42,174 bases of DNA from a virus, in the IMG/VR virus record IMGVR_UViG_3300032431_000019, positions 1 through 42,174 of that record; one strand, written 5' to 3'. Below are positions 1,914-7,807 of this stretch, piece after piece. Positions within the stretch are counted from its first letter, which is position 1. The number at the start of each line of letters is the position of its first letter. A model generated the notes under the pieces. That model saw only the letters and a program-made list of their open reading frames with translations. It had not been told where the DNA came from and searched no databases. A program made the position numbers and the translations under genes.

Positions 1914-2159
1914 AATTTTACTGATAACGATATTTATACGAAAGGGTCGATCGAGTTGGGTGACAAGAAGTTATCGATCATAAATCAACACAGAGGCGAC
2001 AAGGATCGCTTTCTAGGCGTGATACTCTAATGATCGATAGAATGTACCTTAGCAAATTAGAAAGCCGTACAGAATCAAACAGAGCATTCGTATAACTTTC
2101 ATACATATAGTTATCACCTATTATTCGTTTAAATATCACATTATTATAACACACAAAAT

Positions 2160-2194
2160 AACCGTAGAATTTGCGTTCTACGGTTATTTTTTTT
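2160..2194. terminator. Bidirectional intrinsic terminator where the two arms converge
   Basis: A 10-bp stem AACCGTAGAA / TTCTACGGTT with loop TTTGCG is followed by a T9 run on the plus strand and by ATTTTGTGTG on the minus strand. It lies between the late operon and the stop of minus-strand gene 2193-3338. Confidence 0.8.
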
Positions 2195-3338
2195 ACCAGT
2201 TGTTGCACCTCTCAAGAGCGCGTACGAATAATTTAGTGTCTTTCACCCCACTGAAATATGTGAGGCGCGACTTGTAATCACTGACGCGCAAACTGGCAGC
2301 TTTAAGCAACTCGTCTGTACTGTCGAGCATTGTCGTCTGCGACTTGTTAAGGTAGCTACCATCAAGCCAAACAAACCTGTCAATGTTTGGGTTGGTGTTA
2401 AGCAAGCCGAGATAGAGTTGCTGACCATCGCAGTCGCCCGACACAATGATGGTGCTGACTCCATACTTGTCGCACAAGCCGTTAATTTGCTTGACGTAAA
2501 AAGGGCGAGAAAGTGGACAATCTATAACAGACGCATCTAAATCACCGTCTCTGTCAAAGTCCTTAACATAATCATTACCGTGCATGGTTAAAGTTTCGCT
2601 GCTACGCACACCATTAACTACATACCACTTTGGCACCCCATTATATGTGGGTGCAACAATAACATTGAAGTCATCGCGGATAGCACTGACAGCATTTAGC
2701 AGTGTTGAGTACAACGTGTTGTAAGAACTGCACGATGGCGAAAAGTCAGGTAGAAAAAGAATAGACGGCGTTTGACGGTCTTTCTTTTTAGTATGTACAG
2801 ATACGTCGCGGTAAGTTTCTAGACGTTTCGCGAATTTACTACCGTCAAGTTCATCGCTGTCATTCGCCATACCACCCTCTACCAGTTGGTAGATAGCACC
2901 TTGTATTCGCTTAATGTCATCGTATCCCACCTTCTCTTTTTTTGGAGGTGTAACAATGACAGCGCGCGGATACCAGTTGTTTGGGTCTGACGATGAGCTT
3001 GCGACAGGTGCGCTGAGAGTGTCAAACTGTATGTCAACTTCTGTGTCAGAGTCGAAGCCATCCTCATAGTCAGGGTTTATCACCTCTTCATCAATGAGGT
3101 ACTCAATTTCTTGTTCGCGCAACTCTGTGAGTTTGTCGAAGTCTTCGTCAGAAATGAGTTCGTCAATTATCGCCGCAGCTTCGGAATCACCCTCAGAGAT
3201 AACGTCAATTAGCTCACTCTTGAGGGTAGGTTCTTCTGTAATTGTCGTGACTACAAAATTGAGGCGCAACAGAGTCTGGTACTCTTCGGAGGTACACTCT
3301 TTATAGTCACCATCAACAGTCTTGTAAGCGTATTTCAT
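2193..3338 (-). CDS. VWA (von Willebrand A) domain protein, CobT-like; acidic N-terminal half
   Basis: The MIDAS-type DxSxS motif (LFLPDFSPSCSS, about nt 2733-2747) is followed about 105 aa later by IIVSGDCDG, as in VWA folds. The N-terminal 120 aa are strongly acidic. TAATG coupling links it to the upstream AAA+ gene. Confidence 0.65.
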   Translation of the reverse strand: MKYAYKTVDGDYKECTSEEYQTLLRLNFVVTTITEEPTLKSELIDVISEGDSEAAAIIDELISDEDFDKLTELREQEIEYLIDEEVINPDYEDGFDSDTEVDIQFDTLSAPVASSSSDPNNWYPRAVIVTPPKKEKVGYDDIKRIQGAIYQLVEGGMANDSDELDGSKFAKRLETYRDVSVHTKKKDRQTPSILFLPDFSPSCSSYNTLYSTLLNAVSAIRDDFNVIVAPTYNGVPKWYVVNGVRSSETLTMHGNDYVKDFDRDGDLDASVIDCPLSRPFYVKQINGLCDKYGVSTIIVSGDCDGQQLYLGLLNTNPNIDRFVWLDGSYLNKSQTTMLDSTDELLKAASLRVSDYKSRLTYFSGVKDTKLFVRALERCNNW

Positions 3339-5053
3339 TAGAATGGCATCCTCGTAGAAGAGTTGTTACTGATGTAAAATTTGGTGGCGTAGTTCGCCTT
3401 GCTCAAGATTTCGTAATCTTCAGGTTCTTTACAAAGATAGGCGAACATCAGCGTCTCCACATCTTTAATAGATTGCGCGTGTTCGAGCGATGCAGCAAAT
3501 TGCATACCCTCTTTTACGGAAGGTGAACTTGCACCTCCAGCACGAATAGCAATTAGCGCGTCAACAATTATGGATGCTTGCTTGTGCGCGATTAAGCTGA
3601 TTTCCACATCACGCGGCAGAAAGTCAAAGTGGTGGCGATAGCAGCGGCGCAAGAAAGCTTCACTGTGAGGGCGGTAGCCATTAGAGGTGAAGAAGAGGGT
3701 AATGTTTTTAGCAACACCAACTTCTTGACGGTCTAGGAAAGGTACGCGGTAGTTCTCTGCAAAGTCGAGTAGCAAGTTTTCGGTGCGCTTCGACGCTTTA
3801 TCAATTTCGTCAATACACACCACAACTTTACCTTTGCGTGAAGCTTGCACAGCGCGGAGAAGAATACCAGCTTGGTACACCTCTTCGTGATTGTCAGCCT
3901 CACGGAGTACCGCTTTGCCGACGTTGACGCTGTAGAACAAGTCTTCGCTGTTTGTACCATCATGGCAGAGGGTATAAATGTACTCTGCTCTGTTACGAGC
4001 GGCGTAACAGGAGGTGAAGAAAGTCTTGCCAGTTCCAGGTTTTCCAAGAAGAAGAGCGACATTAGTTTTGTTTTCTGTGTCTTCTAGGATGCGGATTAGC
4101 AGTTCGTCAGGCTTGCGGAGTTTATATGTTCCCATATCCATTGTTTGTGTGTAGATTGGTTCTGTTTCTGTGACTTCTGTTAGAGGTACGCGAGTGAATA
4201 CATATTCATCACCGTAATCTCTTATCGTTTTAGTATCAAGGTGCGGCTGTACATTTATAGATTGCTCTAAGTCTTCAACCACACAATCGAACCATCCAAA
4301 TGTTTTGCTTTCGCAGTAGAACACATGCAGCATTGATTTTGAGCTGAACGAGACAACTGCTCTCGGAGCTACATCTGAACGTATAAAAATGTAGAGTACA
4401 TCGTAGAGTACAAATGCAACTACCTTTGTTTGTTCTTTGTCAATAGTTAGTGAAGACATGAAATCTTCAGCAAGAGAGCGCTGCTCGTCACAGAATTTTT
4501 GCGCATCTTTTAGGTGATACTTCTGTGTGGTATTAGCACCATCACATGTTACACGAACTGGTGGACGAACAAAGGTCTGTGTGAGCGCGTCATAAAGCAC
4601 AGAGTCAGCATCTTCAAGGTCATTGATGTTTGGTAGACCTAACGGAAAAGGCGGTTGCACGATGCTAAATCTTTTAAACCTTACGTTTGAACGCTTTCCA
4701 TTAACATCTACAGTAAAGTTTAGAGAATTTGTAAACCTAGGTATTAAGCCAAACTTCTCAAATTCGTCCCAAGCTGCTCTTGCTACATCAGCATTGTAAC
4801 TTGCACCATTGTGTATTTCCCAACCTGTGTTTGTTGTTGTTGTTGTTGGTGCAAGCTCTTTGATGTCGTCAGTTTGTTTTCTTTTAAACATTCCATTCAC
4901 AACCATTCCGCTTGATGGGTTTATAACAGAGAAACTAAACGACTGTACATCATCGTCTGGAACGCCACGTCTGTAAAACTCATCCCAAGCTAGTCTCTCT
5001 TGGGTATTACTGTATTTACCACGGTCATCACAAAGCTCCCATTCTGTATTCAC
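3338..5053 (-). CDS. AAA+ ATPase, MoxR/CobS-like, with an about 320-aa N-terminal extension containing a tandem duplicated domain
   Basis: Motifs seen are Walker A LLLGKPGTGKTF (about 4021-4056), Walker B VVVCIDEIDKA (about 3796-3830), sensor FFTSNG and LRRC. A GTG start overlaps the upstream stop (GTGA) and is preceded by AGGAG 9 nt upstream. Confidence 0.85.
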   Translation of the reverse strand: MNTEWELCDDRGKYSNTQERLAWDEFYRRGVPDDDVQSFSFSVINPSSGMVVNGMFKRKQTDDIKELAPTTTTTNTGWEIHNGASYNADVARAAWDEFEKFGLIPRFTNSLNFTVDVNGKRSNVRFKRFSIVQPPFPLGLPNINDLEDADSVLYDALTQTFVRPPVRVTCDGANTTQKYHLKDAQKFCDEQRSLAEDFMSSLTIDKEQTKVVAFVLYDVLYIFIRSDVAPRAVVSFSSKSMLHVFYCESKTFGWFDCVVEDLEQSINVQPHLDTKTIRDYGDEYVFTRVPLTEVTETEPIYTQTMDMGTYKLRKPDELLIRILEDTENKTNVALLLGKPGTGKTFFTSCYAARNRAEYIYTLCHDGTNSEDLFYSVNVGKAVLREADNHEEVYQAGILLRAVQASRKGKVVVCIDEIDKASKRTENLLLDFAENYRVPFLDRQEVGVAKNITLFFTSNGYRPHSEAFLRRCYRHHFDFLPRDVEISLIAHKQASIIVDALIAIRAGGASSPSVKEGMQFAASLEHAQSIKDVETLMFAYLCKEPEDYEILSKANYATKFYISNNSSTRMPF

Positions 5054-5874
5054 TCTATAAAACTCCTATACCAATAAGGTTTGTAAGTCAGAAGGTACTG
5101 ACCATCACAGTCATAAAATGCCTCTTTGTAGAAGGAGTAGCGCATATTAGGAGGTACAAGAAACTTACCAGTCAATGTACCTCCACGCTTTTCTGGCACT
5201 CCTTCTGGTGCATTAAGATTCTCGATGATGTAGTCAATACCATCTGTGTTGTCAAAGTGTTTGATGACGAGTCGTGCGCGAGTCAAAATCCTGTCATCCC
5301 ACTTCAACGGAATTTCTCGCAGTTCGTTGGTAGACTTGTTTATGATAAGCCACACGCCGCGCTTTGTTTTCTTTGCAGCACAGTAAATGTGCAGTTGAGT
5401 TAGATACCCTCTGTCATCATTCTGGTTACGGCAGAACTCGCGGAAGTAGGTGTCAGACATTGTTTTAACTTCTACTACCGCTTCACCTACCATAAAATCG
5501 ATATGACCGAGAACACCTCCAAACTCAACTTCGTCTTGTGCGCTGTGGATGTCATACCCCAATAGGAATATGACACACATCACAAACGCCTCGAAGACGT
5601 GTCCAAGCATGAATATCCAGCGCAACTTAAAATTAATTGCATCAGGTTCGCTATACCCAATCTTCGCTAAACAAAGAAGAATAAGCGGCTTACCCATTGC
5701 TGATACGCGAAGCTTGTCAGAGTGTGCGCCATCTCTAAAGAAAACATCTTGCACAGAGGATGCGAGAGTCTTGGAGAAGAACGCAACGACCTTGATGATA
5801 GTGGCGCTATCCACAGGGTATGCGCCAGCTTCGTCGCCGTTCCAGTATTCGAGTAGCCGCCTAAATGTGTTCAT
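5050..5874 (-). CDS. PD-(D/E)XK (RecB/Cas4/YqaJ-like) exonuclease
   Basis: The core motif is GHIDFMV...EAVVEVKT (D...ExK), followed by YLTQLHIY (QxxxY). It is ATGA-coupled to the upstream ORF and sits next to an annealase, the typical exo plus SSAP pairing. Confidence 0.75.
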   Translation of the reverse strand: MNTFRRLLEYWNGDEAGAYPVDSATIIKVVAFFSKTLASSVQDVFFRDGAHSDKLRVSAMGKPLILLCLAKIGYSEPDAINFKLRWIFMLGHVFEAFVMCVIFLLGYDIHSAQDEVEFGGVLGHIDFMVGEAVVEVKTMSDTYFREFCRNQNDDRGYLTQLHIYCAAKKTKRGVWLIINKSTNELREIPLKWDDRILTRARLVIKHFDNTDGIDYIIENLNAPEGVPEKRGGTLTGKFLVPPNMRYSFYKEAFYDCDGQYLLTYKPYWYRSFIE

Positions 5875-7009: not shown

Positions 7010-7807
7010 TTACAGCATCCTCAAGAATACAGGAAAGCGCGGCTTAACCTGTTCAGAGCGCTGATACTTGAACTCAACAGACTTGCCGATGAGTTCATCT
7101 TTTATACTCCACAGGATAGAGCGCGACATATCATCAAGACCGCTGCCACATGAGAACTCTACACCCTCAGAGGTGCGAAGTTGTAATGAGCCGAGAGTGT
7201 CAACAGACATGCCGCCTTCGAGTTTGCACTCATATCCGATAACTCTAGCAGTTTCTGTCATGGCACGTTTGAATGATAAGTAGGACTGTTCTTTGAATGT
7301 AACCCTACCGAATTTGTAGGGTGCGTCAGGGTCGCGGATAATTACACCCTCTAGACCATCTAACACATATTGTTGTTCAAGCTGTAATAGCTCTTCGAGA
7401 GAGTTGACTATATCATACGATGCACAATGGATTCGTAATGATGGCTTGCGCTCAAAGTGTAGACGGTGAATCCTGTCACCAAACTCTTTGTCAGGTATGT
7501 CAAACCTGTCGAACATATAAAGATGCCAACGCTCATCCTCTTTGTAGTGAGAACGGACAAAAGAAGTAGTGTCGCTAAAAGAGTTGTTAACTACAAGCTC
7601 ACCTTCTCTACCATCGGGTAAATCTTTTAGTGCAGCGCGGAGGTAGCCATTAGGTACGGTTTTACCTGAACGCATCTTAAGTACGCCGTTAACCTTCATA
7701 ACGCGGATACCATCATACTTTGGCATGACAATCTTTGGAAACGTGATGAGGTTGAGAAACTTCTCTCTACCTCCATCAAGAGTGTGGTCAGCTAACATTG
7801 CTTTCAT
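7010..7807 (-). CDS. ATP-dependent DNA ligase (minimal, 265 aa)
   Basis: Nucleotidyl-transferase motifs are present: I PKYDGIRV, III LYMFDRFD, IV LEGVIIRD, V LSFKR and VI-like KPRFPVFLR. TAATG coupling links it to the polymerase gene. Confidence 0.9.
   Translation of the reverse strand: MKAMLADHTLDGGREKFLNLITFPKIVMPKYDGIRVMKVNGVLKMRSGKTVPNGYLRAALKDLPDGREGELVVNNSFSDTTSFVRSHYKEDERWHLYMFDRFDIPDKEFGDRIHRLHFERKPSLRIHCASYDIVNSLEELLQLEQQYVLDGLEGVIIRDPDAPYKFGRVTFKEQSYLSFKRAMTETARVIGYECKLEGGMSVDTLGSLQLRTSEGVEFSCGSGLDDMSRSILWSIKDELIGKSVEFKYQRSEQVKPRFPVFLRML

Follow-up and report, generated by a model that had tools for sequence, protein, structure and literature searches.

The window analysed here, the whole 42,174-bp stretch, is a complete virus record (IMGVR_UViG_3300032431_000019) with direct terminal repeats, and our subject is an AAA+ ATPase gene on its minus strand whose protein opens with two tandem copies of a module of about 55 residues. 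From N terminus to C terminus the protein consists of the two repeats and the linker between them, a middle region and a C-terminal ATPase core. The features of the gene are as follows.

3338..5053, minus strand: AAA+ ATPase gene (P0001), 571 amino acids (aa); its GTG start overlaps the upstream exonuclease stop as GTGA
4880..5050, minus strand: repeat 1, residues 2–58 (N-T-E-W-E-L ... F-K-R), from local alignment; domain 1 of a hidden Markov model (HMM), independent E-value (i-E) 2e-41
4832..4879, minus strand: linker, residues 59–74, ending in T70–T74, which is (ACA)5 at 4832–4846
4670..4831, minus strand: repeat 2, residues 75–128 (N-T-G-W-E-I ... F-K-R), from local alignment, HMM and AlphaFold2 (AF2)
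4880..4889, minus strand: 10-nucleotide (nt) direct repeat GTTTAAAAGA, copy at the end of repeat 1
4670..4679, minus strand: the same direct repeat, GTTTAAAAGA, copy at the end of repeat 2
4139..4669, minus strand: clade-specific middle region, residues 129–305, with no family match; common to the related proteins P0003 and P0154 at 63–69% identity
3341..4138, minus strand: MoxR/NorQ-type AAA+ core and lid, residues 306–571; Pfam AAA_5, Walker motifs

Local alignment of residues 1–66 with residues 67–135 gives a score of 67 (BLOSUM62) against a mean of 21.9 for 2000 shuffles (standard deviation 4.1, maximum 45), which corresponds to z = 11 and was reached by 0 of the 2000 shuffles. The tandem duplication that the original prediction had read from the sequence is thus borne out, and the coordinates given for it, 4667–5044, are correct. 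Its details needed small adjustments: both quoted peptides are present, the second at residues 77–129 as described and the first at 4–59, one residue beyond the 4–58 given; the poly-Thr (ACA)5 linker exists and lies about 11 nt from the position assigned to it (4843–4857); and the stretch before the ATPase core, estimated at about 190 aa, measures about 177 residues (129–305). Twenty columns are identical between the repeats, including W5, E6, Y14, R20, A22-W-D-E-F26, G30 and F56-K-R58. The copies are 35% identical as protein and their aligned codons 53% identical as DNA, with different synonymous codons at 7 of the 20 identical residues, and from this codon record we conclude that the duplication is old and that both copies are held by purifying selection. 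The two GTTTAAAAGA copies are spaced exactly 210 nt (70 codons) apart, the second one downstream in the gene. A third copy of the repeat was found neither further along the ATPase protein nor in six-frame searches of the window and related loci. P0003, P0154 and L008, the DNA locus that encodes P0003, all preserve the start position and the N-T-E-W-E motif, which makes a real start downstream of the repeats improbable.

The remainder of the protein has a recognisable motor. Pfam AAA_5 matches residues 334–470 with 68.3 bits against a cutoff of 22 (E 9.3e-19), and the Walker A (G-K-P-G-T-G-K-T, 337–344) and Walker B (V-V-C-I-D-E-I-D, 410–418) motifs are invariant in 24 family members. With the core alone as query, the solved protein closest in sequence is NorQ, a MoxR-family ATPase of 270 aa (E 3e-4); the profile of the whole ATPase family found nothing among PDB sequences at E ≤ 0.01. 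CobS-type models gave a weak partial match only (phrog_249, 'porphyrin biosynthesis', E 3.4e-5, residues 306–424), and NCBIfam returned no CobS match. On these profile matches the core is assigned as a MoxR/NorQ-type AAA_5 domain. To our knowledge, ATPases of this type are about 270–340 aa long and normally lack such an N-terminal extension, and the original view that the extension is unusual agrees with the 270 aa of NorQ.

Distribution and predicted fold of the module

No Pfam or PHROGs model matched residues 1–60, 74–132, the tandem 1–135 or residues 136–320 at E ≤ 10. The repeat therefore maps to no described family in these collections, and the description of the domain as unrecognised holds in that sense; what does not follow is a widespread domain, since no more than two or three metagenomic sequences carry the module. 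The original prediction had proposed looking for other carriers with a single repeat by PSI-BLAST or jackhmmer, and a two-repeat HMMER profile run against 1.84 billion representative proteins identified a single true relative, P0154 (E 9e-32), a 241-aa contig-end fragment carrying one repeat copy. Four further HMMER matches, to cadherin/VCBS-like or low-complexity repeat proteins with many copies and about 20 residues aligned, were judged spurious. A word-indexed search of 5.8 billion clusters recovered only the protein itself and P0154. The one other carrier is P0003, which holds the first half of a single copy (i-E 8e-6, hmmsearch), and hmmsearch detected no repeat copy in the remaining 21 members of the ATPase family. 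Related loci were absent from viral contigs when searched with the single protein; searched with the family alignment, six were found, and the repeat occurs in none of the six. Copy number within this one gene family thus takes the values 2, 1, 0.5 and 0. We conclude from these searches that the module is an orphan, local to two or three sequences, and that no widespread domain is hidden behind it.

The copy in P0154 is 92% identical to repeat 1 and is followed at once by the stretch that the window protein has after repeat 2, while the flanking linker region has diverged. A deletion between the GTTTAAAAGA copies would reproduce this one-repeat architecture.

Proteins of the other sub-clade (P0018, P0020, P0021, P0023, P0026 and P0159) carry an N-terminal motif of their own, W-x(3-8)-D-D/E-x-x-Y/S-T-M-x(5)-W-K-A-K. 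Its alignment keeps the register of W-E-L-x-D-D...Y-S...A-W-D-E-F, the first half of the repeat, but for the motif as it occurs in P0018, P0020, P0023 and L005 the correspondence is not significant (hmmsearch i-E 3; hhalign probability 3%, P 0.015), and it may be either a very remote remnant of the repeat or a convergent peptide.

Structure prediction and fold search of residues 1–320 had also been proposed. AF2 modelled this region with a predicted local confidence (pLDDT) of 37 from the single sequence and a mean of 49 with a 24-sequence alignment. With the alignment, repeat 2 comprises a strand (78–81), a helix (88–100) and a hairpin (110–117/120–128) at pLDDT 66–85; repeat 1 has a comparable helix-plus-strand pattern at low confidence, and residues 181–270 form a helix, a four-strand meander and a second helix at pLDDT 51–62. 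The repeat is accordingly modelled as a small beta-alpha-beta-beta unit of the alpha+beta type. Foldseek found nothing in the PDB at E ≤ 0.001, its sole match in BFVD at that threshold has a template-modelling (TM) score of 0.11 and a root-mean-square deviation of 32 Å, and a wide VIA fold search with the AF2 model gave no credible neighbour. A protein-atlas feature search likewise returned no usable match. A protein-atlas ESM model of repeat 2 matched an Argonaute cluster at TM 0.58 and DUF4060, DUF7446 and RelE/ParE-like folds at about 0.5, values that fold tools call uninformative at about 55 residues. The repeat can be set beside such small alpha+beta modules (a segment of the Argonaute N-domain, RelE/ParE-like proteins, DUF4060 and DUF7446) at these uninformative scores, and it has no sequence similarity to them. 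The structural analysis thus provided a predicted fold for repeat 2 and no credible neighbour.

Mosaic conservation of the gene and its operon

The ATPase has about 26 close relatives of 450–525 aa, on contigs of up to about 42–44 kb, which are near-invariant from residue 306 to the end. Compared with four related phage loci, the core is 72–77% identical, in the range of the DNA polymerase (67–73%) and the exonuclease (74–75%) and above the ligase (57–58%), the Sak annealase (51–54%) and the gene downstream of the ATPase (43–46%); residues 1–305 have no tblastn match at E ≤ 0.01 in the same four loci. Profile–profile comparison by hhalign of the middle region (P0001, P0003 and P0154) with the N-regions of the 21 other members gave probabilities below 1%. 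The nearest relative, P0003 (L008:2998-4386), has a core that is 96% identical, with a synonymous divergence (dS) of 0.43 and a ratio of non-synonymous to synonymous divergence (omega) of 0.06. Residues 176–305 have dS 0.75 and omega 0.23, and across residues 136–175 and the repeat remnant dS is saturated (> 2). This jump in synonymous divergence within one gene indicates that its 5' part has a separate history, with recombinational exchange of the front end beyond faster protein evolution alone, and suggests that the ATPase gene contains at least one recombination breakpoint.

In the 43.7-kb phage L005 the N-terminal extension is a separate 147-aa open reading frame (ORF) in another reading frame (L005:4240-4683, plus strand). 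It holds S-W-Y-D-E-D...Y-T-A-F-E-H-K-A-W-K-A-K-K and overlaps the ATPase ORF (L005:4464-5870) by about 220 nt. The same extension is fused in frame to the ATPase in sister proteins such as P0023, and the split could reflect a frameshift, a sequencing error or a split gene.

Two neighbouring genes flank the ATPase gene.

2193..3338, minus strand: partner gene (P0122), 381 aa, with a D-F-S-P-S motif like that of a metal-ion-dependent adhesion site (MIDAS); translationally coupled to the ATPase gene
5050..5874, minus strand: Cas4/PD-(D/E)XK-type exonuclease gene, directly upstream of the ATPase gene, within the coupled Sak-orf100-exo-ATPase-VWA block

In all relatives the contig with the ATPase also carries the partner, whose D-F-S-P-S motif (DxSxS, MIDAS-type), located in the C-terminal half, is invariant. 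The N-terminal third that precedes this half is strongly acidic and of low complexity (D-E-L-I-S-D-E-D-F-D; E-E-V-I-N-P-D-Y-E-D-G-F-D-S-D). The only family match of the partner is VWA_CoxE, at 16 bits against a cutoff of 26.4; NCBIfam gave no match, Pfam none above threshold, and the partner family profile none among PDB sequences. We regard the partner as a likely VWA protein, an assignment short of proof because it is drawn from the DxSxS motif and a sub-threshold family match with no PDB-sequence match beside them. Neither the ATPase nor the partner has a tblastn match among 50,697 phage records (INPHARED).

The order Sak-orf-exo-ATPase-partner is preserved in the related loci L004 and L005. 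In the window these genes belong to a leftward replication and recombination arm that encodes a primase-helicase, an endonuclease, a family-A DNA polymerase, a small ATP-dependent ligase, the Sak-type annealase, a 100-aa ORF and the Cas4/PD-(D/E)XK exonuclease; the terminase, portal and major capsid genes lie on a rightward structural arm. A strong terminator-like hairpin with a 15-bp stem (2155–2190, minus strand) follows the partner gene immediately, at the end of the coupled Sak-orf-exo-ATPase-partner unit and facing the end of the late operon. The ligase (7010–7807, minus strand) is only 265 aa long and is conserved in all four of the related loci at 57–58% identity, so its small size is stable in the clade. 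The large terminase is 35–38% identical to those of the cyanopodoviruses PP, Pf-WMP3, LPP-2, A-4L and TR020, whose hosts are filamentous cyanobacteria. By sequence affinity the window is that of a podophage, distant kin of these viruses, and the terminase affinities suggest filamentous cyanobacteria as candidate hosts.

What the module might do

We favor a model in which the module is a lineage-specific, dispensable and bivalent recognition module on a phage MoxR–VWA remodeller; its function is one that we infer, and we hold the model as a whole to be about evenly poised between right and wrong. MoxR–vWA pairs are chaperone/co-chaperone machines, examples being midasin, RavA–ViaA, CoxD–CoxE and a tail-assembly pair of Acidianus two-tailed virus (ATV), in which extra domains confer client specificity, and some MoxR lineages have N-terminal regions of their own (PMC7159879). 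We envision that the phage ATPase probably forms a ring-shaped remodeller acting with the downstream MIDAS-bearing, VWA-like protein, and that its sub-clade-specific N-region of about 305 residues would be the specificity end, docking the ring on a client or adaptor. The two orphan modules of about 55 residues sit at the tip of this region with a flexible Thr-rich linker between them, and binding through the tandem pair would be bivalent, such that a hexamer would display twelve copies and be 12-valent. The spread of copy numbers among relatives shows that the module is readily gained or lost, and GTTTAAAAGA at both copy ends offers an easy route for deletion. AAA+ N-domains generally select clients or adaptors, and we read the N-region as a specificity region because of this rule together with selection on both copies, the cassette-like front end, and the conservation of the motor and its partner.

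Several observations weigh against this model. A full copy is missing from relatives whose core is 96% identical and whose partner is 88% identical, and since close relatives are without one or both copies, the module must be accessory and the core machine would function independently of it. Model confidence is low for repeat 1 and for the middle region (pLDDT 29–62), and the VWA assignment of the partner comes from a DxSxS motif and a 16-bit sub-threshold Pfam match, the partner profile having found nothing among PDB sequences.

The module could instead be a neutral or near-neutral appendage, left over from domain accretion in a phage gene that evolves fast, tolerated on a flexible linker and making no specific contact. 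Copy numbers ranging from 2 to 0 among close relatives fit this idea, as does the restriction of the module to two or three sequences with no family or fold match. Purifying selection speaks against it: the copies are only 35% identical yet share a 20-residue motif written with differing synonymous codons, and the P0154 copy has stayed close to repeat 1 beside a diverged linker region. We consider a neutral appendage unlikely.

Recognition of DNA or nucleoprotein is a further candidate role, in which the repeats would anchor the ATPase on DNA, or on recombination intermediates arising from the Sak annealase and PD-(D/E)XK exonuclease that are co-transcribed with it. The operon context makes this possible, but relatives with the same context lack the module, the two copies have net charges of only −2 and +2 and the middle region has one of −12, no helix-turn-helix, zinc or oligonucleotide-binding (OB) signature is present, and the structural scores all lie below the noise level that the tool itself states. 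The suggestion of the original prediction that the extension is a substrate- or DNA-recognition module draws no support from these charges, from the search for DNA-binding signatures or from the fold searches, which found no significant structural neighbour. A DNA-binding role thus appears distinctly improbable.

MIDAS ligands are acidic side chains, as in the midasin ligands Rsa4 and Ytm1, and the acidic helix around W-D-E-F, in which both copies keep D24 and E25 invariant, might accordingly offer a carboxylate to the metal of the partner's DxSxS site, or the repeats might mediate ring assembly, but the phage encoding P0003 combines an 88%-identical partner with half a repeat in which the motif reads W-G-E-F, and 21 relatives without the module retain the partner. 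We hold either role to be very improbable.

Returning to the model of a bivalent recognition module, a bolder version would make the whole 305-aa front end a host-target recognition cassette that aims the MoxR–VWA machine at a specific host protein. We think this a poor prospect. If true, the target could be a complex such as one for defence or DNA repair in a filamentous cyanobacterium, and sister phages, whose non-homologous N-regions precede a core that is 75% conserved, would bear the record of an arms race fought by module swapping, analogous to the exchange of receptor-binding proteins, yet intracellular.

Taken alone, the module is a narrow orphan that changes little. More useful is the setting in which it was found: a clade of phages of about 42 kb with a strongly conserved MoxR/NorQ-like ATPase and MIDAS partner wired into a recombination operon, in which the front end of the ATPase is replaced between sub-lineages and remodelled by insertions and deletions, even where the genes are otherwise almost the same. 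Should this front end determine client specificity, the natural variants with two, one and no copies would form a series for finding the client.

Comparison with known MoxR–VWA systems

Three known systems invite comparison. The VMAP ternary conflict systems (Kaur et al. 2020, PMC7159879) combine MoxR and vWA proteins and are prevalent in multicellular bacteria, cyanobacteria among them. Their MoxR proteins, like the phage ATPase, have a family-specific N-terminal region rich in conserved aromatics and are paired with a vWA protein, but their motifs, WxhapG and PsWRxa, differ from the phage repeat (PMC7159879). No third, VMAP-like component was identified here, and the present gene belongs to a phage, not to a host defence locus.

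In p618 and p892, ATV possesses a MoxR–vWA pair studied for its part in tail assembly (PMC7159879). As described there, this too is a viral MoxR-type ATPase longer than the minimal core and accompanied by a VWA protein (PMC7159879), a likeness drawn from description. ATV is an archaeal virus and its pair has a structural-gene context, whereas the genes described here lie in a replication and recombination block.

The third comparison is with NorQ/CbbQ and their partners NorD/CbbO. The phage protein differs from NorQ and CbbQ in its 305-aa N-terminal extension, which both of them lack, and the pair differs in being phage-encoded within a recombination operon, in its weak sequence similarity and in a partner that falls below the Pfam thresholds for VWA. 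The likeness lies in the basic unit: the AAA_5 core of about 266 aa is close in size to the 270 aa of NorQ, and a gene with a DxSxS MIDAS motif lies immediately downstream, in a pairing that is conserved.
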